From: an uncultured Bacteroidia bacterium
GTDB taxonomy: Bacteria; Bacteroidota; Bacteroidia; Bacteroidales; F082
DNA length: 64,000 bases
Assembly: GCA_902774295.1 (NCBI GenBank)
Contig: CACYHP010000004.1
Coordinates: 70,489 to 134,488, forward strand
Direction of reading: 5' to 3'
The translations under genes and the position numbers were made by a program. How positions within the stretch are numbered: the first letter of the stretch is position 1; each line of letters starts with the position of its first letter. Below are positions 6,749-63,880 of this stretch, piece by piece. The notes under the pieces are model-generated. The model worked only from the letters and a program-made list of their open reading frames with translations. It was not told the origin of the DNA and did not search any database.

Positions 6749-7384
6749 ATGAAAAGAAGTTTTAAACCCGGAACAATGCTTTATCCACTGCCGGTGGTGA
6801 TGGTCTCGTGCGGCGACAGCCCCGAGAACTATAACATCATCACGGTGGCGTGGACAGGTATTTTATGCTCCGACCCGCCGATGTGCTACATATCGGTGAG
6901 AAAAGAACGCCACTCACATGCGATAATCTCCAGAACAAAAGAGTTTGTGATAAACCTCACGACAGATGCCTTGGCAAAAGCCACCGACTGGTGCGGCGTA
7001 CGCTCTGGAAGAGATCACAACAAGTTCAAAGAGATGCATCTCACGCCTGAGCAGGCCGAGGTGGTCAAAGCTCCTATGATAGCTGAATCGCCAGTAAATA
7101 TCGAGTGCAAAGTGGTTGATATCAAGGAGTTAGGCTCGCACGATATGTTTATGGCAGAGATAGTGGCAGTTCATGGTGACGAAAAATATTTCGACCCGAG
7201 CACAGGACTTTTCCAGCTCAATCAGGCCGAGTTGATAACATATTCGCACGGGAAATACTATTCTTTGGGCGAGAAAATAGGCAAATTCGGTTTCTCAGTA
7301 GAGAAAATTCAACATAAAAGGAAAACTTCCTCATCGTCATTTCGACCGGAGCGAAGCGTAGTGGAGAAATCTCCTAAAAAATAG
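6749..7384 (+). CDS. Flavin reductase-like (FMN-binding split-barrel) protein with a repeat-derived C-terminal tail
   Basis: YPLPVVMVSCG...NIITVAW.G...P....ISVR pattern of flavin reductase-like domains. The last ~17 aa (SSSSFRPERSVVEKSPKK) are encoded by the family A repeat. Confidence 0.75.
   Translation: MKRSFKPGTMLYPLPVVMVSCGDSPENYNIITVAWTGILCSDPPMCYISVRKERHSHAIISRTKEFVINLTTDALAKATDWCGVRSGRDHNKFKEMHLTPEQAEVVKAPMIAESPVNIECKVVDIKELGSHDMFMAEIVAVHGDEKYFDPSTGLFQLNQAELITYSHGKYYSLGEKIGKFGFSVEKIQHKRKTSSSSFRPERSVVEKSPKK
7336..7374 (+). repeat. Family A dispersed element, copy 1 (inside a CDS 3' end)
   Basis: GTCATTTCGACCGGAGCGAAGCGTAGTGGAGAAATCTCC. Confidence 0.85.
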
Positions 7385-7391
7385 ACGAAAA

Positions 7392-8009
7392 ATGGATTAC
7401 ATTAAAGTTAAAGGCTTACAAAAAGACGAAGTCATCGGTTTGGTGAAGGAATGGATCAAGTTGTATCCTCATTCTTTCAACCCGGAAGTGAATTTTTGGT
7501 TTTACGAACTCGCTGAGGATCAGGTGATTATCGGCTTGCACGATGATTTGAGCACCTTGGCGGTCAGCCTGTTGGTCATTTATCTGACTTCAGCATTGAA
7601 AGACTCCACTGAGGTCGATAATGTTGTTGCATACCTCACTGTTGATGACAACGAAATCTTGTTAAAACAGAATTACGGCCGTCGCGCAAAGATCGTGGCG
7701 AAAGGTACCGATGACGACAACACTGGCGTGATAATCCTTTTGGAAAACAACTATTGTGTCGACTATTATTTCCGTGGCAAAGCACATCAGATCAAAAATC
7801 ACGGATTTGTCTTCTTGGAACCATCACTTCCCGAATCCATTGAAAACGCTGAGAAAGACGAGATTTTTGTTGGTGACATTGTCCCGAAGAAAAAGATTGA
7901 GCAATCGCTTGAACCTGATGCGTCACCATGGAAGAAGCTGATGTGGTATGCCATCTGCACTGCTGTCGGTCTCGGCATCGGATTCCTGCTGGTTTACCTA
8001 TATTTTTAA
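7392..8009 (+). CDS. Hypothetical protein with a C-terminal transmembrane anchor
   Basis: 205-aa ORF with no motif I recognise. The C-terminal hydrophobic helix is LMWYAICTAVGLGIGFLLVYLYF. Confidence 0.45.
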   Translation: MDYIKVKGLQKDEVIGLVKEWIKLYPHSFNPEVNFWFYELAEDQVIIGLHDDLSTLAVSLLVIYLTSALKDSTEVDNVVAYLTVDDNEILLKQNYGRRAKIVAKGTDDDNTGVIILLENNYCVDYYFRGKAHQIKNHGFVFLEPSLPESIENAEKDEIFVGDIVPKKKIEQSLEPDASPWKKLMWYAICTAVGLGIGFLLVYLYF

Positions 8010-8018
8010 TGAGCTACC

Positions 8019-8055
8019 GTCATTTCGACCGAAGCGAAGCATAGTGGAGAAATCC
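8019..8055 (+). repeat. Family A dispersed element, copy 2 (intergenic)
   Basis: GTCATTTCGACCGAAGCGAAGCATAGTGGAGAAATCC, 10 nt after the stop of the preceding ORF. Confidence 0.85.
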
Positions 8056-8086
8056 TATTTAATCCAAATAAAATAAAAAAGGAAAC

Positions 8087-9478
8087 GTGTTAACAAAATT
8101 CCAGAACTACATTGAGTCAAACCACCTTATCAATAAAGGTGACCGCATCCTCGTCGCCCTGAGCGGCGGCGTCGACTCGATGGTTTTGGCGGAGTTACTT
8201 AGGCGGGGCGGCTATGACATAGCCTTTGCACACTGCAATTTCCATCTGCGTGGCAAAGAATCGGACGGCGATGAACAATTTGTCAGAGAATATGCCGAAA
8301 GGGTAGGAGTGAAACTCTTTGTACGCCAATTCGACACCTTGGAATACGTTGAAACACAAAAGGTCTCCGTTGAGATGGCCGCCCGCGAACTGCGCTACGC
8401 CTGGTTCAACGATTTGATTAACGCCAACGAACACATCAGTTCGACCGAATCGCATGTCCACCCTGTCATTTCGACCGAGCGCAGCGAGTGGAGAAATCTC
8501 CTCTTCGACAAGCTGGCTCTCGCTCATCACGCTGACGACCAAATCGAGACCTTCTTCATCAACCTTCTTCGTGGCTCCGGCATCAAAGGCTTGAAAGCGA
8601 TGCAGCCTCGTAACGGCATGTATATCAGACCTTTACTGTGGGCTTCACGTGAAGAAATCAAGAAGTTTGCAATTGAAAACAGCATCCAATGGCGCGAAGA
8701 CAGCACCAACAACGACACTGTCTATCTTCGCAATAAAATCCGTCATGAGCTGATGCCCGTTTTCGACTCGATTAAACCTGAAGCACGAGAAAAGATTCTT
8801 GAATCAGTCAATCACTTAGCCTCTGAAAATCAATTATATAGAGAACTTTTAAAAGAAAAGATATCTCAAATTGAAACCGTTGATGGCGTTTTGCACTCAA
8901 TTCCTAAACGTCATTTCGAGCGTAGCAAAGCGGAGTCGAGAAATCCTCTTGGTCTCCAACTCCTTTTTGAGTGGATTAGAAATTATGATTTCTCATATTC
9001 CCAATGCGAATCAATTTTCGCTGCTCTTGACGGAGAATCTGGCAAGGAATTTTATTCTGATGAGTATCAATTAGTTATCGAGAAAGAAACAATAGAAATT
9101 TTTCCTATTGATCCTGTACAAACAAGGCATAATTTATCCCAACGGGTGACAATACAACCAGTACGGACAAGGCATGCTTTGTCCCTGCTTATAACAGATA
9201 ATCCCAATATCGCCCAGCTTGATTACGATAAATTAAAACTGCCACTCCAAACCCGTTTTTGGCAACAAGGCGACCGCTTTCACCCTCTCGGGATGCGCGG
9301 CACAAAGCTCGTCTCCGATTTCTTTAACGATAATGATTTCACCACTTTTCAAAAGAAAAACACTCTGATTTTGACGGATAATGAAGGCGAAATCGTGTGG
9401 ATTGTCGGCTATCGCATCGACGATAGGTTTAAAATCACAGAAAAAACAAAAACCATTTATCAAATAGTTGCGGAATAA
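8087..9478 (+). CDS. tilS: tRNA(Ile)-lysidine synthetase, carrying several in-frame repeat insertions
   Basis: PP-loop SGGVDS, HCNFHLRG, AHHADDQIETF, C-terminal TilS domain. GTG start as in the ORF track. Confidence 0.85.
   Translation: MLTKFQNYIESNHLINKGDRILVALSGGVDSMVLAELLRRGGYDIAFAHCNFHLRGKESDGDEQFVREYAERVGVKLFVRQFDTLEYVETQKVSVEMAARELRYAWFNDLINANEHISSTESHVHPVISTERSEWRNLLFDKLALAHHADDQIETFFINLLRGSGIKGLKAMQPRNGMYIRPLLWASREEIKKFAIENSIQWREDSTNNDTVYLRNKIRHELMPVFDSIKPEAREKILESVNHLASENQLYRELLKEKISQIETVDGVLHSIPKRHFERSKAESRNPLGLQLLFEWIRNYDFSYSQCESIFAALDGESGKEFYSDEYQLVIEKETIEIFPIDPVQTRHNLSQRVTIQPVRTRHALSLLITDNPNIAQLDYDKLKLPLQTRFWQQGDRFHPLGMRGTKLVSDFFNDNDFTTFQKKNTLILTDNEGEIVWIVGYRIDDRFKITEKTKTIYQIVAE
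8437..8456 (+). repeat. Family A element, partial copy inside tilS
   Basis: CAGTTCGACCGAATCGCATG resembles the 5' half of the family A element. Confidence 0.45.
8465..8502 (+). repeat. Family A element, copy 3 (in-frame inside tilS)
   Basis: GTCATTTCGACCGAGCGCAGCGAGTGGAGAAATCTCC, translated as VISTERSEWRNL. Confidence 0.85.
8910..8947 (+). repeat. Family A element, copy 4 (in-frame inside tilS, different frame)
   Basis: GTCATTTCGAGCGTAGCAAAGCGGAGTCGAGAAATCC, translated as RHFERSKAESRNP. Confidence 0.8.
9116..9150 (+). repeat. Family C palindrome, degenerate copy plus CCCAACGG linker, inside tilS
   Basis: GTACAAACAAGGCATAATTTATCCCAACGGGTGAC, translated as VQTRHNLSQRV. Confidence 0.5.
9165..9184 (+). 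repeat. Family C 20-nt palindrome inside tilS
   Basis: GGACAAGGCATGCTTTGTCC (one G-T mismatch), translated within VRTRHALSLL. Confidence 0.75.
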
Positions 9479-9488
9479 GAATTTTTAT

Positions 9489-9496
9489 TATCTTTG
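9489..9496 (+). promoter_or_regulatory. -7 box (TATCTTTG) for the dsbD-like gene
   Basis: Matches TAnnTTTG about 54 nt upstream of 9550. Confidence 0.45.
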
Positions 9497-9549
9497 TAAC
9501 CCGAAATAAAACTTTAATCAATTTATAAATTATTGAAGAACAACGAGTT

Positions 9550-11592
9550 ATGAAGAAACTTACAATTATTTTAGTGGCGTTTTTCGCATTAATGATGCCT
9601 TTTGCGTCGGTTGCCCAGATTTATGATCCTGTGCAATGGAGCTTCTCGACGGAGTCGCTGGGAAATAACGAGTATAATGTTATTTTCAAGGCACAAATCG
9701 AAGCAGGATGGCACATTTATTCGCAAAATCTTAAGGGAGAAGGCCCAATCCCGACAACATTCCTGTTCGCAGAAGATTCAAAATATGAAAGAATAGGCGA
9801 GGTGACAGAGGGCGAGGCAATTGTCCATTATGACAATGCTTTCGGTATCGAATTGAATTATTTTGAGAAAGAGGCTATATTCACTCAGAAAGTGAAAGTG
9901 CTTGGAAAAGAACCGGTTGCAGTGAAAGGTGAGCTGGAATTCATGGTTTGCAACGATGGTATGTGCCTGCCTCCAACCCAAGTGGAGTTTGACATAAACC
10001 TCGATGGCGGAACTATAGCAAATGCTGAAGCTAAAGAAGGCGACAGCTTGCTTTCAATGATTCTTCAGGCAATTCTTTGGGGCTTGGCAGCATTGCTTAC
10101 TCCTTGCGTCTTCCCGATGATTCCTATGACAGTGTCGTTCTTCCTCCACGGAAGCGAGAATAAGGCTGCTGGTCGTTTCAAAGCCATTATGTACTTCGTA
10201 TTCATAGTGTTGCTTTACACTCTGCCAATCGCAGTCATCATCATGGTGACATGGCTCTTCGGCGGCGACAGCGTCACTGGCGATATCTTCAACTGGCTGT
10301 CAACACACTGGCTCCCGAATATCATCTTCTTCCTGGTGTTTATGGTGTTTGCTGCATCGTTCTTCGGAGCATTCGAAATCGTGCTTCCAAGCAGCCTTGT
10401 CAACAAATCTGATTCCAACTCTGAGAAGAAAGGTCTCGCTGGCGTGTTCTTCATGGCTCTGACGCTTGTTTTGGTGTCATTCGCCTGCACAGGTCCTATC
10501 GTCGGAACAGTACTCATCAAATCAACTTCAGGTGAGTTCTGGACCCCGATTCTCACCATGTTCTGCTATGCAGTGACATTTGCATTGCCGTTCGCACTCT
10601 TTGCGATGTTCCCGTCGATGCTGAAAAATCTGCCAAAGAGCGGTGGCTGGCTCAACACAGTGAAGGTCATCCTTGGTTTCATCGAGGTCGCTCTCGGCTT
10701 CAAGTTCTTGAGCGTCGCTGACCAGACATACCACTGGCATTTACTCGATCGTGAGGTCTATCTCGGCATCTGGATCGTGTGCTTCGCAATGCTTGGATTC
10801 TACCTTTTGGGCAAAATCAAGTTTAAAAACGACGACCCGGTCGAGCATATCAGTGTCGGCCGTTTGATATTGAGTATCATAACCTTTACATTCGTGGTTT
10901 ATATGATCCCTGGCATGTGGGGTGCACCTCTTAAGGCTCTCTCAGGCTATCTGCCGCCACAACAGACCCTCGATTTCGACCTCAAACGTATCAATCAGGA
11001 GAATGCTGACAAGGTTATCGAATATATCCAGCAGAATATGAAGGCTGCTCCTGCAGCTCAAGCCCAGCAAAATGTGGCTCAAACAAATACTGAGCTCTGC
11101 GAGTCACCACGTTTCAACGATATCTTCCATTTGCCTCACGGCTTGAAGGGATATTTCGACTATGAACAGGCTTTGGCATGCGCAAAGGCACAGAATAAGC
11201 CTCTTTACGTAGACTTCACCGGTCACGGATGCGTCAATTGCCGTGAGATGGAAGCTAACGTGTGGAGCGACCCGCGCGTCTTAAAGATGTTGCGTGAAGA
11301 TTATATCATCGTGGCGCTTTACGTCGACGACAAGACCAAGCTTCCTGAAGAAGAATGGGTCGTTGGCGGTGACGGCAAGATGAAGAAGACCATCGGTCGT
11401 AAATATGCCGACTTCCAAATCACCAAGTTCGGCACCAACGCCCAGCCATATTACTGCCTCATGGGTCACAATGGCGAGCTTCTCCACGAGCCACGCGCCT
11501 ACAACCTCGACAAAGACGGCTTCGTCCAGTTCCTCAAAGAGGGCCTCGAAAACTTCAAAAACGGGGTTTTGGTAAGAAACATTAACGAATAA
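9550..11592 (+). CDS. dsbD: Thiol:disulfide interchange protein, DsbD family
   Basis: Signal peptide, N-terminal DsbD-alpha-like domain, CcdA-like multi-TM core (LTPCVFPMIP), C-terminal thioredoxin fold with GCVNC. Confidence 0.8.
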   Translation: MKKLTIILVAFFALMMPFASVAQIYDPVQWSFSTESLGNNEYNVIFKAQIEAGWHIYSQNLKGEGPIPTTFLFAEDSKYERIGEVTEGEAIVHYDNAFGIELNYFEKEAIFTQKVKVLGKEPVAVKGELEFMVCNDGMCLPPTQVEFDINLDGGTIANAEAKEGDSLLSMILQAILWGLAALLTPCVFPMIPMTVSFFLHGSENKAAGRFKAIMYFVFIVLLYTLPIAVIIMVTWLFGGDSVTGDIFNWLSTHWLPNIIFFLVFMVFAASFFGAFEIVLPSSLVNKSDSNSEKKGLAGVFFMALTLVLVSFACTGPIVGTVLIKSTSGEFWTPILTMFCYAVTFALPFALFAMFPSMLKNLPKSGGWLNTVKVILGFIEVALGFKFLSVADQTYHWHLLDREVYLGIWIVCFAMLGFYLLGKIKFKNDDPVEHISVGRLILSIITFTFVVYMIPGMWGAPLKALSGYLPPQQTLDFDLKRINQENADKVIEYIQQNMKAAPAAQAQQNVAQTNTELCESPRFNDIFHLPHGLKGYFDYEQALACAKAQNKPLYVDFTGHGCVNCREMEANVWSDPRVLKMLREDYIIVALYVDDKTKLPEEEWVVGGDGKMKKTIGRKYADFQITKFGTNAQPYYCLMGHNGELLHEPRAYNLDKDGFVQFLKEGLENFKNGVLVRNINE

Positions 11593-13045: not shown

Positions 13046-13076
13046 ATTATTTAATTTTAAATTGTTCATTTTTGTT

Positions 13077-13115
13077 GTCATTTCGAGTGTAGCGAAGCGA
13101 AATCGAGAAATCTCC
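13077..13115 (+). repeat. Family A element, copy 5
   Basis: GTCATTTCGAGTGTAGCGAAGCGAAATCGAGAAATCTCC. It forms an inverted pair with copy 6. Confidence 0.85.
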
Positions 13116-13131
13116 TTCAATTAATCAGTTT

Positions 13132-13923
13132 CTATTTTGCAGGAGATTTCTCCACTGCGCTCCATTTCATTTCGCTTCGGTCGAAATGACGGAGGGACAT
13201 CGTCTCACCGTCGAACTCCGCGTATGTGTAATCCCAGATCCAGTTTCCAACCACCGTTGTCACTGCGTGCTCGCCGGTTTTGTACTGCATCGGCTTGTGC
13301 TGGTGTCCGAACACAAAGAAATCTATTGTAGGGTCTTTCTGCGCCTCGGCCATCGCGTATTTGTACAGCCGTGTGTTCTCGACGTCTTTATAGAAATTGC
13401 CTTCCGACTCTTTTTTAAGCTTTTTGACTCTATGATTATGAGACCATTTCAACGCTACTCTTATTCCAAAATCAGGGTGAATATGACGGAAACACCATTG
13501 TAAGAACCTGTTTTCGAACACGCTCTTCAGGAATTTGTAGCCACCGTCGCCTTCACCACGACCGTCGCCGTGAACCAAAAAGAATTTCTTGCCCTTTAGC
13601 ACCATTATTTCTGGATCTCTATGCACCTGAATGCCAATCTCTTCCTGCAGATACGAGAATGTCCAGAGGTCGTGGTTGCCAGCAAAGAGATGCACTGGGA
13701 TGCCGCTGTCGATAAACTCGGCGAGCTTTCCAAGCAACCTTACATGACCTTTCGGAATCACCGTTTTGTACTCGTACCAGAAATCGAACAAGTCGCCCAT
13801 AAGGAAGAGCTCCTCGCAGTTTTTTTTGATGGAGTCAAGAAACTCGAGAAGCATTTTCTCCCGTCGCTGGCTGTCTTCGAGGGTCGGTACACCGAGGTGG
13901 AAATCTGTTGCAAAGTAAATCAT
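13132..13923 (-). CDS. lpxH: UDP-2,3-diacylglucosamine diphosphatase with a repeat-derived C-terminal tail
   Basis: Calcineurin-like metallophosphoesterase motifs (DFHLG, GDLFDFW, GNHD). It lies beside lpxK. The tail RHFDRSEMKWSAVEKSPAK is encoded by family A copy 6. Confidence 0.8.
   Translation of the reverse strand: MIYFATDFHLGVPTLEDSQRREKMLLEFLDSIKKNCEELFLMGDLFDFWYEYKTVIPKGHVRLLGKLAEFIDSGIPVHLFAGNHDLWTFSYLQEEIGIQVHRDPEIMVLKGKKFFLVHGDGRGEGDGGYKFLKSVFENRFLQWCFRHIHPDFGIRVALKWSHNHRVKKLKKESEGNFYKDVENTRLYKYAMAEAQKDPTIDFFVFGHQHKPMQYKTGEHAVTTVVGNWIWDYTYAEFDGETMSLRHFDRSEMKWSAVEKSPAK
13142..13190 (-). repeat. Family A element, copy 6 (longer variant, inside the lpxH 3' end)
   Basis: The reverse complement reads GTCATTTCGACCGAAGCGAAATGAAATGGAGCGCAGTGGAGAAATCTCC. 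Confidence 0.85.
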
Positions 13924-18955: not shown

Positions 18956-19050
18956 CTCTAATTTCTTTTCATTAATGTTAATTGTTTGTTGTCGTTTTGA
19001 GATTGTCGGGAACTTTTTTTTGTAAACAACTTAATAATTCCGTTAAACAA

Positions 19051-19097
19051 GGATTTCTCCATTTTGCTGCATTGCATTACGCTTCAGTCGAAATGAC
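19051..19097 (-). repeat. Family A element, copy 7 (intergenic, longer variant)
   Basis: GGATTTCTCCATTTTGCTGCATTGCATTACGCTTCAGTCGAAATGAC. Confidence 0.75.
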
Positions 19098-19107
19098 GGA
19101 GAGAATG

Positions 19108-20232
19108 TTATCTTCTGCCTCCACCGACACGACCGCCGCCGCCACCTATACGACCACCGCCGCCTCCAACGCTGCCCCCGCGTGAGCCTGAGTTATAACT
19201 GCCGCTGCTTCTTGGAGCGCTGGTGTTGCTTCTGGTGGTGTTAGTATTAGGTCTTGTCGTCGTGGTGTTGTTTCTCTGCGGTCTGACATATTCCGAACTT
19301 GAACGTGACTGACGGTTGCTGTTAGCCGGAGTATACGTCTTGTTCTGTGAAGACGGTCTCGTCGTCGACTGACTTGGTCTCGTTGTCGATTGACTCGGTC
19401 TGCTTGCTGACTGATTTGGTCTTGTTGTTGATTGACTTGGCCTTGTTGTCGACTGAGTCGGTCTTGTTGTCGTCTGATCCGATCTTCTTGCAGAGCTGTT
19501 CGTTGGACGTGAAATGTTGTCTGAAGAACGTCTTGAGCTCTCGCGGTTGCTTACAGCTGTATTGTTATGATGATCGGCGCTTCTTCTGCTGCTCACAGCG
19601 CTGTTTCCGCCGCCGTTATTATGACCGGATGCTCTGCGACCACTATTATTATTATAGGTGTTTATGCCACCGTGATGTGTTCCATGATGGCTGTGGTTGT
19701 AATAATTGTAATAACCTGGTCCTGGTGGATAGTATGGGTGATAAGGATAGTATGGAGGATAATATGGGTAATAGCCGCCCCATCCCCAGTAAGGATCCCA
19801 TGCATAACCCCAGTAATATGGGCTGTAGCCCCAATAAGGTCTGTATGCCGGATACCAGAACGGATCCCAGAATGGGTCCCAATAGCCGTAACCGACTCCG
19901 AATCCTACTCCAAAACCTACGCCAAAATCAACAGTTACACGGGTCTCAGGAGCCTCGTCAACGATGTAAACGGTGTCTACAACTCTGTCGATGCTATCCG
20001 TAACGGCATAATCTTTATAAATTTTGCTCGTTTTATCCTGGTTGTTGCTCTTTTCCGATTTCACTGAGTTGTTGTCAAAATAGCCGTAATTTGAGGTCAC
20101 GAGGGACTTATCGCTCTGCGAATCACTGTCGTATGGTGAATAATACGCATCGTCGTTGATAACGTTATTGCTTGATGCACAAGCAGTTAACAACACTGTT
20201 GCGGCTGCGATGATGATGAAACTCCTTTTCAT
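19108..20232 (-). CDS. Lipoprotein with extreme low-complexity regions (aromatic/Pro-rich, SQSTTRP repeats, Gly/Arg tail)
   Basis: Lipobox LLTAC|AS after MKRSFIIIAAATV (start set at the ATG at 20230-20232). See the related finding. Confidence 0.6.
   Translation of the reverse strand: MKRSFIIIAAATVLLTACASSNNVINDDAYYSPYDSDSQSDKSLVTSNYGYFDNNSVKSEKSNNQDKTSKIYKDYAVTDSIDRVVDTVYIVDEAPETRVTVDFGVGFGVGFGVGYGYWDPFWDPFWYPAYRPYWGYSPYYWGYAWDPYWGWGGYYPYYPPYYPYHPYYPPGPGYYNYYNHSHHGTHHGGINTYNNNSGRRASGHNNGGGNSAVSSRRSADHHNNTAVSNRESSRRSSDNISRPTNSSARRSDQTTTRPTQSTTRPSQSTTRPNQSASRPSQSTTRPSQSTTRPSSQNKTYTPANSNRQSRSSSEYVRPQRNNTTTTRPNTNTTRSNTSAPRSSGSYNSGSRGGSVGGGGGRIGGGGGRVGGGRR
19355..19480. repeat. Six 21-nt tandem repeats encoding (S/T)QSTTRP heptads
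   Basis: GGTCTCGTCGTCGACTGACTT-type units at 19355, 19376, 19397, 19418, 19439 and 19460. Confidence 0.85.
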
Positions 20233-20272
20233 ATTAAATTCACTTTTTATTATTACTTTGCAAAAATTTTTG

Positions 20273-20280
20273 TAATTTTG
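20273..20280 (+). promoter_or_regulatory. -7 box (TAATTTTG) for proS
   Basis: Matches TAnnTTTG 42 nt upstream of the ATG. Confidence 0.45.
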
Positions 20281-20321
20281 CACACTGAAAAACTAACAAA
20301 AATCGTACCAAACTTTTAAAA

Positions 20322-28228: not shown

Positions 28229-28284
28229 GTTTACTGTTTACCGTTTACCGTTTACTGTTTACTGTTTACTGTTTAGCGTTTATT
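28229..28284. repeat. Heptanucleotide array, (GTTTACT/GTTTACC) x 8
   Basis: Units every 7 nt from 28229. On the minus strand they read (AGTAAAC)n and supply the last codons and stop of the TrmH-family gene. Confidence 0.85.
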
Positions 28285-30851: not shown

Positions 30852-30923
30852 TGACCCCGCCGGGATTCGAACCCGGACCGAAGGAACCGGAATCCTTAAT
30901 TCTATCCATTAGACTACGGGGCC
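30852..30923 (-). tRNA. tRNA-Arg (anticodon CCG)
   Basis: I folded the cloverleaf by hand. Acceptor GGCCCCG/CGGGGTC, anticodon arm AAGGA-TTCCGGT-TCCTT, T-arm CCGGG-TTCGAAT-CCCGG. CCA is not encoded. Confidence 0.9.
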
Positions 30924-32884: not shown

Positions 32885-35800
32885 ATGAAAAAACTCGTAT
32901 TCTTCCTTAGCATCGTTTTATCTGCTGTTTTTTCGGCAATTGCCCAAAGTCCTGACCCGATTATGGCGGGCTACACTGTCACTTCAGGCACAGCAGGAGT
33001 CAACAATGAAGAAAACTATGACAAGCTGTTAGATGGCAGAAATTTCACCAAATGGTGTATTCTTGACATTGGTGATTGCGCCTATGTTGAGTTTCACGTC
33101 GTCTTTCCTTTTATTCCTACCGGCTACGTCATGACCACAGCTAACGACGTCAGCACATACCCGGGCCGCAACCCAAAAGACTGGGTTATTAAGGCAAAAC
33201 TGAATCTTGAAGACGAGTGGACTACCATAGCCAGTGTTACTGACGACAATGTGCTGCAATTTGAGAATAAGACCAACTATAGTTTTGAGATTTCCAACGA
33301 CCAACTATACAAATATTTCCGTTTCGAAGTCACAGCGGTGTGGGGAGGAGGACAATTTCAACTTGGTGAGTTGATGCTCAGAGGATCAGTAAATGAAAAC
33401 CCGGATATTGTTGTTGTCACAGACTACAACCCCAAAGCTGGTACGGAGGGCGCCAGTAGCAATGAAAACTATCAGAAATTGGTGGATGACGATCCAAACA
33501 CGAAATGGTATGTCAATAGTTTGACGGATACAACATTTATAGAATTCCATCATGGCAGTCCATTCATTCCTACCGGCTACATCCTGACCACAGGCAATGA
33601 CAACAGCTCACACCATGGCCGCAATCCCAAAGACTGGGTCATCAAGGCAAAGCTGAATCAAGAAGACGAGTGGACCACCATCGCCACCGTCACCAACGAC
33701 AACGTGTTACAAGACGTCAATAATACTGACTTTGAGTTTGGTATCGACAACAACGCAAAATACAAATTCTTCCGTTTTGAAATCTTGTCGGTACAGAACG
33801 GTAGCAAGTTCCAACTCGGTGAGTTCAAGTTCAAAGGGAGGTCTGTGCTGAACACTGACCCGATTATCGCTGGTTTTATGCTCGTAGATGCCGCTTATTC
33901 CTCTAATCCCCAAAATCTTGTAGATAACAACAGAAATAATTATTGGGATTGCCGTAGTCAGGATCATTATTACTATGTGGACTTTTACAGCGACAAAGCT
34001 ATCATCCCCACAGCCTATATTATGACAACAGTCCAGGATTTTGGCCCCTTCTGGGGGTGTAACCCGAAAGCATGGAGTATCGAAGCAAAAATGAGCTTTG
34101 ATGACGAATGGCAATGTATTACCCAAGGTTACGACCTTATCCCGAATGAGACCGGAAATGACTTCGAGTTTAGCATCAACAACGACAAAGCCTATCGCTA
34201 TTTCCGTTTCGCCGCAACAGCAGTAAACTACGAATTAATGGAGGTGTTCAGGCTCTCCGAGTTACGACTTAGAGGCCGTGTTGTCGATGACTACACTTAT
34301 TATGTCAAGGACGTGATGCTTATCGGTGGCTCCGAGACCGAGGTAAACGACCTGAAAAAGTCATATCGAAAACAGGGTTGGAAGAGTTATGACTATGACC
34401 TTAACAAAGGCTGCGGCAGCAGTAGCGACTGGATTTACTTACTCTATAAAGACGAGTATAATCCAAGTCTCGTGAACAAAGGCTATGCTACTGACTTTTA
34501 TTTATGGACACAAAACTCAAGTGCTACCGAAACTCGTACCTACGACGGAAGGACCTATTATCTTGTGCCTTACGATGGCGGCGAGCATTTCAAAAATGTC
34601 AAAGGCGACCTGAACAGCCATGCCGGCGGTTCTGACATACATCTGTATTACACCAGAGAGGCTTTTCCAGACCATCGCAGTGTTGACAATATCTACTTCA
34701 ACTCGACAAAAAGCGGAGCTTTAGGCTCAGGAGGCAGCTCTTCCGGTTATGACTTGAACTCTGGTGCAGGCGGCGATTATATATATATGCACTTCACCAC
34801 TTCACAAACAATCGGCACCATGCCAGTGGGAATATTGAACGAAAGTGTTGTCGGCTACGGCTCCATAAACATCTCGGGCACAGCTTATGATTCCGACGAT
34901 TTGTCTGCAAGTGTACCTTTACATGCCTGTCTTTACAAAGAAGACGGCGTCACTTTATACGTACAAAAGGATTTTCTTGCAGACCTGCCTAACAATGGCT
35001 TTTCCAAAAACTTGTTTGGCATCCTTCCTGGCACTTATAAACTTAAGCTCCTTGCCACCGACATTGATGGGTATGGCGATATCCAGATTGGAAACATTCA
35101 GACCATCACTGTGACACAAGGCCCTGAAATCATAGAGGTTGGCCATGGCGATACAGAAAGTTTTTTCCCTATGTATCATTTATACCAATATAGCATGTCT
35201 CAACAAATCTACAGGGCGAACGAACTACAAAGTGCTGGCACTATATCAGGTATCGCATATTATTATAAACCTTACGCTGGTGTCGGACCCTATGAGATGA
35301 ACAACGTGCAGATTTATATGCAACATACCGACAAAGATTATTTTGAAGACGATAATGACATCATTCCCATTGATTTAAGTCAAAAGGTGTTTGAGGGCAC
35401 TGTCGTGGCAGAGAACAAAGGTTGGGTGGAATTTTCATTTGATACACCTTTCGAATATGACGGGATACATAATATCCTGATCAGTTTCAACGACCCTGCA
35501 CCCGAATACTACCAGAGTGGTTGGGGGCATCGATTCCGTATCAATCGCTCACCTAATACGACACATCTATACTTGTCGAGAACCAATCCTATCGATTTGG
35601 AAAACTGGACCGACTACCACTTCGTCGATTCGCGTAGGAACGACCTCCAGTTTTTTATCAAACCATCAGGTAGCCCCAAACCCGCCAACTTAAGGTTAGC
35701 CACATGTACCGCAGATATGACGGAAATTGCTTGGAACGCCCCAGCAACCAACCAGAGCATATATGGCTACCTATATCAATTCAAGAGAGGAGATGAGCCA

Positions 35801-38203
35801 TGGAGCACCGCTGTTGAGACATTCAACAAAACCGTATCCTTTGATGATCTGGTAAACGACATTGATTATAGATTCCGCGTGAAGACACTCTATAACAACA
35901 ACGAGACAAGCATTTTCTCTGAAATATCGTTTAGACTACCGACAGATTTACCATTTGAAAACAACTTTGAAGAGGATTATGATGGCATGACCGTGTTAAG
36001 TATCGATTGGGAACATGGTGGAATACAAACCAGAGAAAGTTATTCCGGTAATAAAAGCTTTAATTTTATGGCCCTCTCAGATGGATACAGTCCTCAATAC
36101 TTGATATCTCCGTGTTTTCCAAACACCGAGAAGATCGCGATGTCGTTCTATTTCAAAGGACCAACTTCTAATGATGAAAGAATAGTTTTAGGGTATTCAA
36201 CCTACGACAACAACATTGGTTCGTTTACGTGGCTCGATGATATTGGTACCCGCACAGAGACCTGGACCTATTATAGGAGCACATTCCCAGTCGGCACGAG
36301 ATATATAGCCATAAAATATGTAACCGTTGGTCCTGTTGGCACCTATATAGACGACATCCGTTTCGAAAAAGCTACAACTCATAAGATGCCGACAAACTTA
36401 ACCGCAAGCGATCTTACCCCTAACAGCGCCACAATAACATGGAAGGCTCCACTAGGGGAGACACCTATTGGCTATGGATATCAAATCATGAAAACCAGCG
36501 ATGCAATATGGAGCGCTGATATGGGTGTCGTGGAGGAAAATATGGTTTCTTTGGCCCACTTGCTTCCTGACACCGAGTATGATATCCGTGTTAAAGCGTT
36601 GTATGATAACGGAGAAAGCAGCTACTTTGTAAGATACAGGTTTATGACTGATGCCAAGCCTGTAATATTGCCAATCTACCAAGGCTTCGAAAACGGCATG
36701 AATGGTTGGCGTGTCGTAGACGGACAACGACACACGGAGATTATGCGTTACATAAATCCACATGGAGGCGGTTACACATTTTATTTCGATGATGAGGAAA
36801 ATGAACCACAATATTTGATTTCTCCTGAATTCATTAGTATCGAAGACGTGTATTTGAGCCTCTTTTATAAAAGCTATCAAATAGATGATAACAGTAGTGT
36901 CGTCTCATTCTTTTATGTGGGATACTCTACCACCACTAATGATATTGACTCCTTCATTTGGAGTGAAAGAATGGCAGCCCTGGGAAATTGGGCAGAGTAC
37001 ACAGCCACCTATCCGACGGACACCAAATACATCGCCATCAAATGGGAACAATTATGTTATCTTTACATTGACGACGTCTCCATCTGGACAACTATGAGTC
37101 ATCCGATAGCAAAAGCCACTAACTGGGACGAGCCTTCTCGCCCTATCGACGGATGGAATTTCATTGCTTCACCCGTTGATGGAAGTGTCGCACCTATTGA
37201 TGTGAAAAAACTCATCTTTAGCATCAACGATATTCCGTATGTCAATTCCGGAGAATATGACCTCTACCGTCTCAACAACACCACTTGGGAGAACTTCAAA
37301 GCCCATCAAAATGGCTTTATGCTTGAAAACGGAAAGGGTTATCTTTATGCCACAGCAGCAGATGTTACAATCCAGTTCATCGGCCCTATCTACGAAGGTG
37401 ACACCAAGACCGTAAACATTAGCCAAGGCAACAACCTTGTAGGCAATCCGTTCTTTGCCGATGCATACATCGACAGACCTTATTATAAAATGAACGCTGC
37501 CGGCACCGATATCGAGGCCGTCACGGATTACATCAACAATCCTATCCCTAAATTCACCGGCGTGGTGGTGACAGCCGATGACAACGAGACCGTCACCTTC
37601 AGCAAGGAACAACCTGCGACGACAACATTTAACAATGGAAGCATACAGATGACCTTGATGAAAGCCAATGTGCGCGGCGACGCTGTGCAAGACAAGGCGA
37701 TAGTGAGCTTCAACGAAGACACTAAACTCGAGAAGTTCATCTTCAACGACAACCATGCCAAACTCTACATCCCACAATCGGGCGAAGACTATGCCATAGC
37801 ATTCTCCAACCGTCATGGAGAGATACCGCTGCATTTCAAAGCTAACGAGCCGGGCAGATACACCATCGCCTTCGATGGCGACATGAGAGGCGCCACACTT
37901 ATCGATAAGATTGAAGACACGACAATAGACCTCGGCGCTAACGACAGCTACACCTTTGTGGGCTCGCCTGCCGACAAGAAAGACAGGTTCGTGATTGCGT
38001 TCGCGTCAGCATCTGACACCTTCGCTTATCAGGATGGTAACGACATTATCGTCACCGGTGAAGGCGAACTACAAGTGTTCGATATCATGGGACGCATGGT
38101 GATGACACAGCACGTCAACGGTATCCAATCGATAAACACAATGCAACAAGGCATTTATGTCTTTAAGCTGAATGGCATGACACAGAAGATGGTTGTCAGA
38201 TAG
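32885..38203 (+). CDS. Giant T9SS-sorted surface protein (3 discoidin-like repeats, beta-prism-like triple repeat, Fn3 and choice-of-anchor-J-like modules, type A CTD)
   Basis: Signal peptide. Three ~150-aa repeats (NYDKLLDG..TKW..., FIPTGY..TT.ND...GRNPKDWVIKAKL). Fn3-like PANLRLA.../PTNLTAS... segments. C-terminus ELQVFDIMGRMVMTQ...GIYVFKLNGMTQKMVVR. Confidence 0.75.
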   Translation: MKKLVFFLSIVLSAVFSAIAQSPDPIMAGYTVTSGTAGVNNEENYDKLLDGRNFTKWCILDIGDCAYVEFHVVFPFIPTGYVMTTANDVSTYPGRNPKDWVIKAKLNLEDEWTTIASVTDDNVLQFENKTNYSFEISNDQLYKYFRFEVTAVWGGGQFQLGELMLRGSVNENPDIVVVTDYNPKAGTEGASSNENYQKLVDDDPNTKWYVNSLTDTTFIEFHHGSPFIPTGYILTTGNDNSSHHGRNPKDWVIKAKLNQEDEWTTIATVTNDNVLQDVNNTDFEFGIDNNAKYKFFRFEILSVQNGSKFQLGEFKFKGRSVLNTDPIIAGFMLVDAAYSSNPQNLVDNNRNNYWDCRSQDHYYYVDFYSDKAIIPTAYIMTTVQDFGPFWGCNPKAWSIEAKMSFDDEWQCITQGYDLIPNETGNDFEFSINNDKAYRYFRFAATAVNYELMEVFRLSELRLRGRVVDDYTYYVKDVMLIGGSETEVNDLKKSYRKQGWKSYDYDLNKGCGSSSDWIYLLYKDEYNPSLVNKGYATDFYLWTQNSSATETRTYDGRTYYLVPYDGGEHFKNVKGDLNSHAGGSDIHLYYTREAFPDHRSVDNIYFNSTKSGALGSGGSSSGYDLNSGAGGDYIYMHFTTSQTIGTMPVGILNESVVGYGSINISGTAYDSDDLSASVPLHACLYKEDGVTLYVQKDFLADLPNNGFSKNLFGILPGTYKLKLLATDIDGYGDIQIGNIQTITVTQGPEIIEVGHGDTESFFPMYHLYQYSMSQQIYRANELQSAGTISGIAYYYKPYAGVGPYEMNNVQIYMQHTDKDYFEDDNDIIPIDLSQKVFEGTVVAENKGWVEFSFDTPFEYDGIHNILISFNDPAPEYYQSGWGHRFRINRSPNTTHLYLSRTNPIDLENWTDYHFVDSRRNDLQFFIKPSGSPKPANLRLATCTADMTEIAWNAPATNQSIYGYLYQFKRGDEPWSTAVETFNKTVSFDDLVNDIDYRFRVKTLYNNNETSIFSEISFRLPTDLPFENNFEEDYDGMTVLSIDWEHGGIQTRESYSGNKSFNFMALSDGYSPQYLISPCFPNTEKIAMSFYFKGPTSNDERIVLGYSTYDNNIGSFTWLDDIGTRTETWTYYRSTFPVGTRYIAIKYVTVGPVGTYIDDIRFEKATTHKMPTNLTASDLTPNSATITWKAPLGETPIGYGYQIMKTSDAIWSADMGVVEENMVSLAHLLPDTEYDIRVKALYDNGESSYFVRYRFMTDAKPVILPIYQGFENGMNGWRVVDGQRHTEIMRYINPHGGGYTFYFDDEENEPQYLISPEFISIEDVYLSLFYKSYQIDDNSSVVSFFYVGYSTTTNDIDSFIWSERMAALGNWAEYTATYPTDTKYIAIKWEQLCYLYIDDVSIWTTMSHPIAKATNWDEPSRPIDGWNFIASPVDGSVAPIDVKKLIFSINDIPYVNSGEYDLYRLNNTTWENFKAHQNGFMLENGKGYLYATAADVTIQFIGPIYEGDTKTVNISQGNNLVGNPFFADAYIDRPYYKMNAAGTDIEAVTDYINNPIPKFTGVVVTADDNETVTFSKEQPATTTFNNGSIQMTLMKANVRGDAVQDKAIVSFNEDTKLEKFIFNDNHAKLYIPQSGEDYAIAFSNRHGEIPLHFKANEPGRYTIAFDGDMRGATLIDKIEDTTIDLGANDSYTFVGSPADKKDRFVIAFASASDTFAYQDGNDIIVTGEGELQVFDIMGRMVMTQHVNGIQSINTMQQGIYVFKLNGMTQKMVVR

Positions 38204-38584: not shown

Positions 38585-38985
38585 TGGTGGAGCTGGAGGG
38601 AGTCGAACCCTCGTCCAAACAAGGAACAATTATGCTTTCTACATACTTATTCTGTTGTTGGTTTTCGAGTTGTGCAAGGAAACAGACATCCTAATCGCAA
38701 CCTTATCTCCTTGAGTTTCACGACGTTGCCGGAGTTTCCGCGTCGCTATCCCGAAATTGCTGAGCACCTCGTTGTCGGACCGGAATCGGGAGGCTCCATC
38801 CGCGAGATGTCTCGTCCTCTCACCTTGTGAAAGGATAAAGCTTCAATCTACTGTGCTTCGATTAAGCAGCGAGAGCGTAAGTATTTTCGCCAATTAATTT
38901 TTTGCAGTCAAGATTTACGAGCGTCACTGCGAGGCTCGGTATGCTTACATAACCCTTCTACAAGCTGTCAAAACCGGTCAGCCCC
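38585..38985 (-). ncRNA. ssrA: tmRNA (transfer-messenger RNA)
   Basis: 5' end GGGGCTGACCGGTTTTGACAGC. 3' end GGACGAGGGTTCGACTCCCTCCAGCTCCACCA. The tag reading frame GGCGAAAATACTTACGCTCTCGCTGCTTAA encodes GENTYALAA* at 38862-38891. Confidence 0.92.
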
Positions 38986-41027: not shown

Positions 41028-41100
41028 GCGGATTTAGCTCAGCTGGCAGAGCGGAAGCTTCCCAAGCTTCAGGTCGCGGGTTCGAGCCCCGTAATCCGCT
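41028..41100 (+). tRNA. tRNA-Gly (anticodon CCC)
   Basis: Acceptor GCGGATT/AATCCGC, anticodon arm GAAGC-TTCCCAA-GCTTC, T-loop TTCGAGC. Confidence 0.9.
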
Positions 41101-41112
41101 CTTTCAGTCGAC

Positions 41113-41187
41113 GGAAGCTTAGCTCAGTTGGTTCAGAGCGCCTGCCTTACAAGCAGGAGGTCGCTGGTTCGAACCCAGCAGTTTCCA
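41113..41187 (+). tRNA. tRNA-Val (anticodon TAC); CCA encoded at 41188-41190
   Basis: Acceptor GGAAGCT/AGTTTCC, anticodon arm CCTGC-CTTACAA-GCAGG, T-loop TTCGAAC. Confidence 0.9.
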
Positions 41188-49230: not shown

Positions 49231-49242
49231 TTTTTTTATAAA

Positions 49243-49282
49243 TTAAACTATTAAACTATTAAGCTATAAAACTATTAAGCTA
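49243..49282. repeat. Octanucleotide array, (TTAAACTA/TTAAGCTA) x 5
   Basis: Units at 49243, 49251, 49259, 49267 and 49275. The array includes the rsmG stop. Positions 49248-49267 are the exact reverse complement of 51050-51069. Confidence 0.85.
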
Positions 49283-49906
49283 AAACAAATGAATCACATA
49301 CTTCTCCACAAAATACGACTCCTCATACCATTTCGTAATCGACGTGCTCTTGCGTTTCCAGTTTTTCGGCACGTTGCGGAGCTCTTCCTCGATGTCTCCA
49401 CCTTTTAAATATAAGATGCCACCAGCCTCGATGTCGTTGGTGACACGCAGTTTGTTGTTGCACCATTTCACAAAGTCGGGCAGCTGCGTAACGGCACGGC
49501 TCACTATCACATCGAACTTCTCTTTGATATTCTCGGCACGTTCCTGAATGGCTGTAACATTCTGTAAATCAAGCTGTTCCTTGACATCTTGAACCACTTT
49601 TATCTTTTTGCCGATGCTGTCGACAAGCAAAAAGTTAGTCTGTGGAAACATTATAGCGAGTGGAATGCCAGGGAAGCCGCCTCCAGTGCCAATGTCGATG
49701 ACTTTCATGCCTGGAAGAAGTTCGAAATATTTCGCTATTGCTAAGGAATGAAGGACATGATGCTCGTAAAAATTGTCCATGTCCTTCCTCGAGATGAGGT
49801 TTATTTTGCTGTTCCAGTCACTATAGAGAGGCGCAAGGCGTTCATACTGAGCCATCTGCGTCTCAGTCAGAGCTGGAAAATATTTTTTTATAATCTGACT
49901 ATTCAT
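49280..49906 (-). CDS. rsmG: 16S rRNA (guanine527-N7)-methyltransferase
   Basis: GidB-like: NLISR, DIGTGGGFPGIPLAI. Confidence 0.85.
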   Translation of the reverse strand: MNSQIIKKYFPALTETQMAQYERLAPLYSDWNSKINLISRKDMDNFYEHHVLHSLAIAKYFELLPGMKVIDIGTGGGFPGIPLAIMFPQTNFLLVDSIGKKIKVVQDVKEQLDLQNVTAIQERAENIKEKFDVIVSRAVTQLPDFVKWCNNKLRVTNDIEAGGILYLKGGDIEEELRNVPKNWKRKSTSITKWYEESYFVEKYVIHLF

Positions 49907-61798: not shown

Positions 61799-62703
61799 AG
61801 ACTGAGATAAAACTTAAGGGCTTGACCCTTAAAAACCCCGTCATGACGGCGTCAGGCACGTTTGGCTACGGCGAGGAATACGCTGATTTTGTTGACCTTT
61901 CAGAACTCGGCGGCATCATAGTGAAAGGCACTACCTTGCATCACCGTGAGGGAAATCCTTACCCGAGAATGGCTGAAACGCCAATGGGAATGCTTAATTG
62001 TGTAGGTCTTCAAAACAAAGGCGTAGATTACTTCATTGAAACGATTTATCCGAGAATCAGACATTTCGACACTAATGTTATTGTTAACGTAAGTGGCTCA
62101 AACATAGACGATTACGTTGCTGCTGCCGCTAAGATTGACGCACTTGACGACATCCCGGCTATCGAGCTTAACGTGTCATGCCCTAATGTGAAACAAGGTG
62201 GAATGGCGTTCGGTGTGACATGTTCGGGCATCGAGCAGGTGACTAAGGCGGTGCGTGAGGTCTATCACAAACACCTGATGGTGAAGCTTTCGCCAAATGT
62301 GACCAACATAGCTGAGATAGCTCTTGCTGCTGAGGCTGCTGGTGCCGATTCCGTCTCTTTAATTAATACGTTGCTCGGAATGGCTATCGATGCGGAGACA
62401 AGAAAGCCGGTGCTGTCGATGGTGACTGGCGGCTTGTCTGGCGCTTGCGTGAAGCCTGTGGCGTTGCGCATGGTCTGGCAGGTGTCGAAAGCCGTGAAGA
62501 TCCCTGTAATAGGCTTAGGAGGCATCTCATCAGCCACAGACGCTATAGAATTCTTACTTGCGGGTGCATCGGCAATACAGATTGGCACAGCAAACTTCAT
62601 CGACCCCGCAATCTCCGCAAAGGTCGCAAAAGGCATTGTGGAATACTGTGAGAGACAGGGAGTGGGGGATGTCAACGAATTAATCGGAGGGTTGGTTATA
62701 TAA
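61792..62703 (+). CDS. pyrD: Dihydroorotate dehydrogenase (class 1B catalytic subunit)
   Basis: [41 protein letters not shown]. Confidence 0.9.
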
Positions 62704-63880
62704 TATTCACCTCCGGCTTTATCTCAATTCCAAATTTTTGGTATACTGAATCCTGGATTTTTCGCATAAGATCCAGGATTTCTTGTGGTTTGCCGCCACC
62801 ATAATGCACCAAGACTAGCGCTTGCTTGTCCCATACGCCGACGTGGTTTTCACGGTAGCCTTTCCAGCCGGCACGGTCGATGAGCCATCCTGAAGGGATT
62901 TTGACCTCACTCGAAATGACGGTCTCTCGTTTGTCATTTCGACCGACCGTAGGGAGCGGAGAAATCTCAACTGGATAAGACGGCACATCTGGATATAATT
63001 CCTTGATTTCCATATATTTATCCGTTGTTACTATCGCATTCTGGAAGAAACTTCCGACACTGCCGACGACACCTACCTCGGGCAGCTTCTCGGCACGAAT
63101 CGTTTTTACCGTCGTTGCCACATCCTGCAATGTCGGATTGGTGATGTTTTTGCTTGCCAAATAATTGCGAATGTTGCCGTAATCCAATTTCAATTCACCA
63201 TGTTTTTTTAATACAAAATCAACGGCGAAAATCAATGGATATCCATCAATTTTGTACAAGGCATGCCTTGTACCTACGGATAATGATTTGTCATCCCGTT
63301 GGGACAACGCATGCGTTGTCCGGTTGGAAATCAATTCTTTAAAAACCGAATTCCGATATGAAAACCGGCATTCCTCATTGCTGAAAATCTTGGTTTGTCC
63401 TGTCGCCAAATCAATCGTATGCACATGATAAATAGTGTCTTTCACTTCGGCACCGTAGGCTCCGATGTTCTGAACCGGTGCCGCTCCGACCTTGCCTGGG
63501 ATGTCGGCGAGATTCTCCAAACCATAGAGGTTTTTCGAGATGGTGTAGTCGACGAAATCTTTCCAAACCTCACCGCTATAACAACGGATTTTCACTGTCT
63601 CGCCGGTCTCTTCAAGCGTCTCGATGCCTTTTATGTTAGGGTAGACCACGAAACCATCGAAAAACTCAGAGGAGAAAAGTATGTTGCTGCCGCCACTTAA
63701 GATTAGGATGCGAGACGTGTTGCCGTTGGGACGTGACACTGTCGCGTCTCTACATGCGATAAAATCAGGATTTTGCAATAAATCGCTGATATCTTCCAAA
63801 GATTTTACCTCTTGAAAAAACCTCGTCTTAACATCAAAACCGAATGTGTTGAGCTCACGCAACGAAAAATTCTTCTCCAT
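62696..63880 (-). CDS. murB: UDP-N-acetylmuramate dehydrogenase, carrying several in-frame repeat insertions
   Basis: [28 protein letters not shown] and SAGWLID-like ([13 protein letters not shown]) motifs. Start set at MEKNFSL. At 394 aa it looks longer than MurB proteins as I remember them. Confidence 0.8.
62908..62968 (+). repeat. Family A element, copy 8, with a 13-nt inverted fragment (inside murB, read antisense)
   Basis: CTCACTCGAAATGAC...GTCATTTCGACCGACCGTAGGGAGCGGAGAAATCTC, translated on the minus strand as [21 protein letters not shown]. Confidence 0.8.
63254..63273. repeat. Family C perfect 20-nt palindrome inside murB
   Basis: GTACAAGGCATGCCTTGTAC. Confidence 0.85.
63302..63321. 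repeat. Family C perfect 20-nt palindrome inside murB
   Basis: GGACAACGCATGCGTTGTCC, preceded by the linker CCGTTGGG. Confidence 0.85.
63712..63754 (-). repeat. Family B-like hairpin element inside murB
   Basis: The minus strand reads TGTAGAGACGCGACAGTGTCACGTCCCAACGGCAACACGTCTC. It shares TGTAGAGACG.CACAGTGT with the terminator at 3371 and the linker CCCAACGG with tilS and the other murB insert. Confidence 0.65.

Follow-up and report, generated by a model that had tools for sequence, protein, structure and literature searches.

Results

The tilS locus

The subject of this report is the tilS gene, which encodes the tRNA(Ile)-lysidine synthetase, in a 64,000-nucleotide stretch of DNA (the window) from contig CACYHP010000004.1 of an uncultured Bacteroidia bacterium. 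The gene contains short palindromic repeats, which we attribute to the repetitive extragenic palindromes (REPs), at three places in its coding sequence, sites 1 to 3. An earlier note, made from the letters of this DNA, described tilS as an in-frame mosaic of repeat modules from two different families. This description holds: the modules, of families A and C, lie there within one open reading frame (ORF). The features are given below (nt, nucleotides; aa, amino acids).

8087..9478, + strand: tilS ORF, tRNA(Ile)-lysidine synthetase, GTG start, 463 aa, uninterrupted
8435..8464, + strand: site 1, partial duplicate (30 nt) of family A from its 5' half, encoding ISSTESHVHP, read directly
8464..8503, + strand: site 1, full family A copy with a TGTC tag and a ATTTCGACCG...TGGAGAAAT stem, in the frame P-VISTERSEWRNLL
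8909..8947, + strand: site 2, family A sub-type A2 with a CGTC tag, in the frame RHFERSKAESRNP, different from that of site 1
9116..9145, - strand: site 3, family C module 1, a decayed REP tagged GTAG/GTTG, antisense to tilS
9158..9190, - strand: site 3, family C module 2, a REP with an 8-bp stem and a 4-nt loop, an inverted repeat in antisense

About 62 TilS residues are encoded by the REPs. The net gain in length is 35 aa against a 428-aa orthologue and 38 aa against 425-aa outgroups; by site it amounts to 24 or 25 aa (site 1), 10 or 11 aa (site 2) and 5 aa (site 3). It is smaller than the number of REP-encoded residues because the modules of site 3 substitute native residues: two REP modules stand there in place of about 20 residues of the native linker. 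The "about 60 extra residues" of the earlier note are thus correct as a count of what the repeats encode but not as a gain in length. The note also took CCCAACGG for a linker between the two family C modules; this segment is in fact the tag of module 1 with its flank, seen from the other strand (CCGTTGGG; compare the murB copy below). The predicted junction peptides of the inserts include ...NEHISSTESHVHPVISTER... and ...HFERSKAESR...

State of the tilS gene

Pfam profiles detect in the tilS ORF the PP-loop domain ATP_bind_3 (PF01171, E = 1.3e-46) and TilS_C (PF11734, E = 4e-9). The SGGxDS motif of the N-terminal PP-loop ATP-pyrophosphatase domain is present as SGGVDS at residues 26-31; the C-terminal substrate-binding domain of the TilS type and the overall fold are present as well, according to PF11734 and Foldseek. 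The solved TilS chains 1wy5, 3a2k and 1ni5 are sequence matches of the window TilS, and the Foldseek search with its model gave 3a2k_A, 1wy5_A, 2e89 and 1ni5 as the best.

Every residue that is invariant in 145 TilS sequences is also found in the window TilS. The ratio of nonsynonymous to synonymous rates (dN/dS) of the tilS backbone is 0.03-0.10 for the window against 11 ingroup orthologues, with dS up to 1-2. Judged by these evolutionary criteria, the insert-bearing tilS is a functional gene under strong purifying selection; this agrees with the earlier note, which considered it probably functional despite the repeats.

It is extremely improbable, in our opinion, that the window tilS is a decaying pseudogene or that the mosaic is an artefact of assembly. 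Our view spans 64 kb only, and a tilS paralogue could exist elsewhere in the genome. However, the low dN/dS speaks against a pseudogene, about 120 orthologues have an unbroken ORF, the synteny around tilS is conserved, and the exact 463-aa protein recurs in 7 contigs and in one metagenome-assembled genome (MAG) from NCBI. Other assemblies contain 463-aa TilS alleles that are 97-98% identical to that of the window.

The repeat families

The window has 8 occurrences of the family A pattern CATTTCGA..N10-30..GAGAAATC, where shuffles lead one to expect 0.02. All 8 of these copies, and 22 copies from related loci, start with (C/T)GTC-ATTTCGA. The tag (CGTC or TGTC) is unpaired and lies at one end, as expected of CGTC-tagged REPs, whose tag may be CGTC, TGTC or CCTC. 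After the (C/T)GTC tag, ATTTCGACCG is able to pair with CGG/TGG-AGAAAT; the stem has 10 positions, opens with A-T and T-A and contains a tandem G.A/A.G mismatch (ATTTC-GA-CCG / CGG-AG-GAAAT), the interior varies from 11 to 30 nt, and the tail is CTCC. Family A thus departs from the rule for CGTC REPs, which prescribes a stem of 8-9 bp, a loop of 4-5 nt and a CCA tail. The outer stem is formed in the minimum free energy folds of 85 of the 135 distinct copies, and significant RNA structure is found for the long forms and for the head-to-head doublets. The latter have inverted CGTCATTYCGA ends and are represented by a dimer in the window (13076-13191) and by site 2 of the related loci L005 and L011.

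Family C, on the strand opposite to tilS, reads GTAG-GGACAAGG-CATG-CCTTGTCC in L010, in L006 and in the murB copy; these GTAG-tagged copies are GTAG-GGACAACGCATGCGTTGTCC (L010), GTAG-GGACAAGGCATACCCTGTCC (L006) and GTAG-GTACAAGGCATGCCTTGTAC (murB). The two family C copies in the window tilS bear the tags GCAG and GTTG and not GTAG; the GCAG belongs to module 2, whose counterpart in L010 and L006 has GTAG. Module 2 folds at -13.6 kcal/mol (z = -3.2), and the orthologue of module 1 in L003 and L008, GGACAATGCATGCCTTGTCC, is far more palindromic. Family B, GTAGAGACG...CGTCTCTAC, forms a strong hairpin of the GTAG type (z = -7); three of its copies are intergenic and one lies within murB.

Rfam gave no match at the repeats, either with gathering thresholds over the whole window or with E <= 1 over positions 7200-9600; only the tmRNA and tRNAs were found. 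The families are consistent with the two super-families of REPs described by Di Nocera et al. (2013), with family A departing in stem, loop and tail.

Comparison with relatives

The bacterium is a member of a clade of uncultured Bacteroidales from the ruminant gut; its nearest species representative is RUG079, whose TilS is 88% identical. The gene order POR, TPP (thiamine pyrophosphate) enzyme, flavin reductase, 205-aa gene, tilS, dsbD is kept in the orthologous loci. Four blocks are specific to the window when its DNA is aligned with that of L003, where TilS has 428 aa. The first, of 41 nt, supplies the C-terminal tail of the flavin reductase; the second, of 78 nt, stands between tilS and the 205-aa gene; the other two fall at site 1 (about 75 nt) and at site 2 (33 nt). 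The second block lies directly upstream of tilS and swaps an overlapping ATG start (TAATG in L003) for the GTG start of tilS:

8010..8087, + strand: 78-nt intergenic insertion with a family A copy (8018-8058)

The segments in question are not shared by all orthologues, since neither the syntenic orthologues nor the outgroups have the inserts of sites 1 and 2. In particular, the full family A copy of site 1 is missing in the syntenic L001 and L003 and in all outgroups. The native sequences in 13 outgroup loci, with TilS 45-62% identical, are WFDELLKNQGFHKLAVAHH at site 1, KSELEDNLQLLFEW at site 2 and FPIDLHDENPKLVQNVFAKTPDFKIEKSNPD at site 3. Because sites 1 and 2 are occupied by short native stretches in L003, L001 and these 13 outgroups, both are true gains, and the sequences compared indicate that the inserts are derived and not ancestral. 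At site 3, the pair L010/L012 has identical flanks, with one module of 39 nt in place of 30 native nt.

L001 (P0012) was considered as a clean empty allele of site 1 and was rejected: the native FDK is also gone from it, which points to an imprecise deletion or a recombinant allele.

Turnover at the three sites

The length of TilS ranges from 427 to 518 aa (standard deviation 22.7) in 119 close orthologues with 75-100% identity, and from 439 to 457 aa (standard deviation 3.5) in 120 other Bacteroidota TilS selected by profile. Nearly all of the length variation among the close orthologues falls at the three sites.

Site 1 is empty, or contains one unit, or up to five tandem units of 10 aa (30 nt), VISxESHAHP; tandem expansions of the 30-nt unit to 2-5 copies are found, for example, in the orthologues P0009, P0036 and P0048. 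Its copies are decayed in L007, L013, L014, L016 and L027, a second hairpin is nested in L011, and other types of element (CRDARPCVST) are met there. The insert-less ingroup alleles retain a derived prefix, WFNDLINAN; they are secondary imprecise deletions, because the native FDK is missing from them as well. Many independent insertions at site 1 were considered and rejected, since the insert-bearing and the secondarily deleted alleles all share this prefix. As read from these alleles, the history of the site fits one old insertion, which would have been followed by decay, duplication, nesting and deletion.

Site 2 was hit independently at least twice, by sub-type A2 in L017 (frame c) and by sub-type A1 in L018 and L015 (frame b), where the left junction differs from that of L017. 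L005 and L011 have a 110-nt inverted doublet at this site, several further elements are also found at it, and the "empty" ingroup alleles retain a remnant, GTCATTTCGAC (KRHFD). The earlier proposal of several independent insertions is thus borne out by site 2 (L017 against L018/L015) but not by site 1 with its probable single old insertion.

At site 3, the tilS of a sister clade from horse faeces (L021, L022, L025) contains in-frame a related CGTC repeat, GTCATTGCGACC...GGAGCAATC, together with 2-5 tandem units of 33 nt (SGAIPETSSEST).

Position of the inserts in the structure

The AlphaFold model considered here was built from 145 sequences and has a mean predicted local distance difference test score (pLDDT) of 76; an earlier model from 40 close homologues (mean 63) was set aside as poor. 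The pLDDT falls below 50 only at residues 115-131, 283-285, 343-358 and 362-364, i.e., at the three insert sites, and all these segments are coil between helices or strands. The model supports the earlier suggestion that the insertion sites are permissive loops, all three being coil and the sole stretches of low confidence; the inserts are probably disordered loop residues.

Site 1 corresponds to a turn of 3-6 residues that leads from helix 4 to the LALAHH strand (residues 122-126 of Aquifex TilS and 117-123 of Geobacillus TilS). By the Rossmann-like topology, the turn would lie at the N-terminal end of the strand, on the face away from the active site. Site 3 is located just ahead of the segment that aligns with residues 377-440 of Geobacillus TilS, the last domain.

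Repeats in other genes and in other metagenomes

The window contains a second gene with internal repeats, murB, and two genes whose 3' ends are formed by family A:

62696..63880, - strand: murB ORF, 394 aa, with families A, C and B in-frame; insert-free orthologues are about 335-340 aa
62932-62970, antisense: family A copy of murB, in-frame
63241-63331: family C pair of murB, two hairpins, in-frame
63725-63756: family B hairpin of murB, in-frame
7334..7377, + strand: family A copy that is the C-terminal tail (SFRPERSVVEKSPKK and stop) of a flavin-reductase-like ORF (6749-7384); 41 nt are missing in L003
13076..13191, no strand assigned: head-to-head family A dimer, composed of the C-terminal tail of an LpxH-like ORF and a spacer unit

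The murB orthologues (at least 68% identity) range from 335 to 447 aa, with presence or absence at three shared polymorphic sites. The six internal REP sites are confined to 2 of about 47 genes of the window, which is very improbable if placement is proportional to length (about 1e-5 by simple arithmetic). A scan of the remaining window ORFs for hairpin stems of at least 9 bp found none convincing. The flavin-reductase-like and LpxH-like genes receive from family A their last 13-19 codons and the stop; in the latter case (ORF 13132-13923, - strand) the tail is the dimer unit 13141-13191, and its partner lies in the spacer ahead of a dipeptidase gene.

Among the matches listed, family A termini occur in metagenome contigs of 27-71% GC. 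In unrelated contigs, family A singlets or head-to-head dimers are in-frame in secA (L096), ksgA/rsmA (L159) and a DNA methylase gene (L117). A census of the ORF context of 144 metagenome copies is used here only qualitatively, as the "internal" class is over-counted in GC-rich contigs.

GIY-YIG genes beside family A

Only one protein family recurrently adjoins family A, a GIY-YIG nuclease of 95 aa. Inverted family A copies flank small GIY-YIG genes of the cd10448 type in L122, L195, L152 and L175 (Pfam GIY-YIG, E = 1e-13 to 1e-16); the gene of L122 has three copies upstream and two downstream. When GIY-YIG loci were chosen by the protein alone, 8 of 10 genera proved to be flanked likewise by CGTC/TGTC/CCTC hairpins of their own. 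The association of GIY-YIG genes with CGTC REPs has already been published for the Ssn family, which are site-specific nucleases of single-stranded DNA (Chenal et al. 2025 Nat Commun 16:2388; PMC11893778), and we claim no novelty for it.

The tags of the flanking hairpins face outward (L122, L195, L152, L175, L186; L205-L214). In Azospirillum lipoferum, the unit of GIY-YIG gene and hairpins lies between sufB and sufC.

Other features of the window

Features of the window outside the genes discussed above are as follows.

38585-38985 (- strand), 41028-41187 (+ strand), 30852-30923 (- strand): tmRNA and three tRNA genes, matched by Rfam at gathering thresholds
19108-20283, - strand: ORF of a secreted-looking protein rich in Ser, Thr, Gly and Tyr, with 21-nt (7-aa, TRPSQST-like) tandem repeats and a Gly-rich C-terminus
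19355-19490 and 19117-19164: the tandem repeats of this ORF
19048-19098: family A copy just downstream of the same ORF
60895-60951, 28229-28282, 49242-49286: intergenic short tandem arrays, with units of 17 nt (AATGTGCTGCTACGCAG, x3.4), 7 nt (GTTTACT, x7) and 8/16 nt (ATTAAACT)
33106-33837: a 279-nt unit repeated with 72% identity at a spacing of 453 nt within a 1772-aa ORF (32885-38203), suggestive of a repeated protein domain

Discussion

Proposed explanation

We believe it likely that REPs of two kinds were copied in-frame into tilS at three loop-coding positions and survived there by tolerance. Short non-autonomous palindromic repeats, namely the CGTC/TGTC hairpin of family A and, in antisense, the GTAG hairpin of family C, would have been copied into the gene. 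Purifying selection would have spared the copies that kept the frame, were free of stops and fell into tolerant loops or linkers, and these would now be translated. The turnover of the copies is fast, with decay, duplication in 30-nt steps, nested insertion, imprecise deletion, and refreshment or replacement by copies of the same family. For the insertion step we rely on analogy: GTAG REPs may be moved by the REP-associated tyrosine transposases (RAYT), and CGTC-type hairpins are substrates of the small GIY-YIG single-strand nucleases Ssn.

Several points weigh against this explanation. No insertion event was observed, and the mechanism is inferred. There is no ssn gene in the window or in 16 related loci; no RAYT gene is found in them either, although no search aimed at RAYT was made. 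No target-site duplication of at least 3 nt is visible at the four filled-versus-empty junctions of the L003 alignment. At site 3 the modules stand in place of native sequence of similar length, unlike a simple insertion, and the low pLDDT of the inserts is partly due to gapped alignment columns. The short forms of family A have no significant RNA structure (z about 0), and the published SRM string, HGTCWYN(0-2)YYVSBRHN(0-5)WNVSBRGN(0-2)RNCYNB, matches no family A copy, with Neisseria, Azospirillum and Sphingobium as the controls that match. Finally, the intact REP cores differ by only 0-3 of 37 nt across lineages, far below the synonymous sites; plain "tolerated junk" would not predict conserved cores.

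Concerning the SRM string, it also misses the repeats that flank the GIY-YIG genes of Spirosoma and Planktothrix. Since these and family A are all missed, the string under-counts the family.

Conservation of the REP cores

In the same lineages the tilS backbone differs by 10-21% overall and by 23-43% at third positions. The similarity of the REP cores under the third-position rate has P = 1e-4 to 1e-6 per pair, for intact cores that were chosen by eye. Likewise, no nucleotide differs between the window and L013 in the 42-nt family A copy at the end of the flavin reductase gene. The contrast between cores and third positions could mean that a function at the level of DNA or RNA maintains the intragenic REPs, with the peptides as a by-product: the REPs might be sites of REP-specific nucleases that modulate recombination or transformation, or they might act in the mRNA as hairpins where ribosomes pause at the boundaries of domains. 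It is in line with this that sites 2 and 3 are at or near domain junctions, and that the Ssn/NTS pairs of Neisseria modulate transformation (PMC11893778). We nevertheless regard such a function as improbable. Many lineages let these copies decay or lose them at no visible cost, e.g., the L014 copy has 9/37 mismatches; the choice of the cores by eye and the lack of a significant fold in the short forms count against it too. The sequences compared suggest a bimodal conservation, which is more easily explained by re-seeding from an active family, or gene conversion by it, than by uniform constraint.

Open frames and the inserted peptides

The earlier note had supposed that the elements are under selection to stay open. 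We see no sign of it, and the proposal was rejected: in 135 distinct metagenome copies of family A the mean number of stop-free frames per copy is 4.16, against 4.10 after a shuffle of the interiors only. The openness is due to the fixed termini, and the genic copies are explained by survivorship in an essential gene.

A related possibility is that the inserted peptides are adaptive, e.g., as new tRNA-contacting or regulatory loops selected on their amino-acid sequence. In favour of this, the motif VISTERSEWRNL is common to many orthologues, and the length of site 3 is roughly constant. However, family A is read in all three sense frames (twice in tilS, in the flavin reductase and in the LpxH-like gene) and in antisense in murB. 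The synonymous positions are conserved along with the peptide, close alleles with 93% identity lack the insert altogether, and the segments are modelled as low-confidence coil. Adaptive peptides are therefore very improbable, less so only than a pseudogene or an artefact; tolerance of the inserted REPs remains our preferred explanation.

Relation to known systems

The phenomenon is of a known kind, the in-frame decoration of proteins by REPs or Rickettsia palindromic elements (RPE; Ogata et al. 2000 Science 290:347; PMC3733652). What is new here is the host clade and the genes; they come with an unusually rich natural series of alleles and with signs of a possible maintenance at the DNA level.

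In-frame intragenic REPs of the GTAG and CGTC types were documented by Di Nocera, De Gregorio & Rocco (2013, BMC Genomics 14:522; PMC3733652), who also reported CGTC repeats in Bacteroidetes. As in their data, our repeats are short tagged hairpins, mostly intergenic or at the 3' ends of ORFs, which form head-to-head dimers; some are in-frame in conserved genes, singly or as dimers and sometimes twice per ORF, and contribute 20-80 aa. They differ in that the family A stem has 10 positions with a G.A/A.G mismatch and an 11-30-nt interior, and the host is an uncultured Bacteroidales clade of the rumen. The targets here are tilS and murB, whereas PMC3733652 lists mostly repair and replication genes, and the same three codon-level sites are re-used here and are polymorphic throughout the clade.

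RPE are REPs read through as protein (Ogata et al. 2000; Ogata et al. 2002). They resemble the repeats considered here in being selfish palindromic repeats that are in-frame in housekeeping genes and translated, at positions compatible with the fold, as is also found for tilS; RPE-4 and RPE-6 are CGTC REPs (PMC3733652). They differ in that RPE-1 is about 100-150 bp long and specific to Rickettsia, whereas the units here are 24-45 nt, and the present host is free-living and gut-associated, unlike the obligate intracellular Rickettsia.

The Ssn nucleases cut single-stranded DNA next to CGTC hairpins (PMC11893778). Family A shares with the NTS/SRM-Ssn system an oriented H-GTC-W-Y tag with a hairpin after it, a copy number in the hundreds per genome, and the layout repeat-ssn-repeat with inverted flanks, the last in the four GIY-YIG loci named for family A above. 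It differs by its failure to match the SRM string, and PMC11893778 makes no mention of intragenic or in-frame copies. The GTAG hairpins of families B and C, the inverted doublets and the lack of target-site duplication recall REPIN/RAYT (Bertels & Rainey 2011; Nunvar et al. 2010), but REPINs are described as extragenic. Of the two hallmarks of MITEs, terminal inverted repeats and a target-site duplication, the doublets have inverted CGTCATTYCGA ends, and the four junctions with L003 show no duplication of at least 3 nt.

Possible re-use of resident copies

It is tempting to propose an extension of this explanation, in which a few codon-level positions in tilS and murB act as landing pads. Ssn (for CGTC) or RAYT (for GTAG) would repeatedly break the resident copy, and repair from other genomic copies would re-seed, swap, expand or delete it. 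We offer this as a tentative proposal and rate it as doubtful, though less so than a function of the REPs at the DNA or RNA level. If true, it would explain why the intragenic cores are conserved beyond synonymous sites, why different sub-families lie between identical flanks with no target-site duplications, and how proteins of near-identical strains come to differ by up to 90 aa in length.

Significance

For the annotation of MAGs, such inserts inflate the variation in length, spawn spurious small ORFs and can mislead the calling of orthologues, start codons and pseudogenes. For the biology of the repeats, REP decoration of proteins, known from Rickettsia, Opitutus and a few proteobacteria, is here extended to rumen Bacteroidales that are abundant and free-living. 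Public metagenomes hold about 120 natural alleles of tilS and about 120 of murB that differ mainly by the repeat in each loop. This set is a natural experiment on the tolerance of loops in two enzymes of the drug-target class, and it informs on the speed at which disordered protein segments arise and vanish through selfish hairpins.

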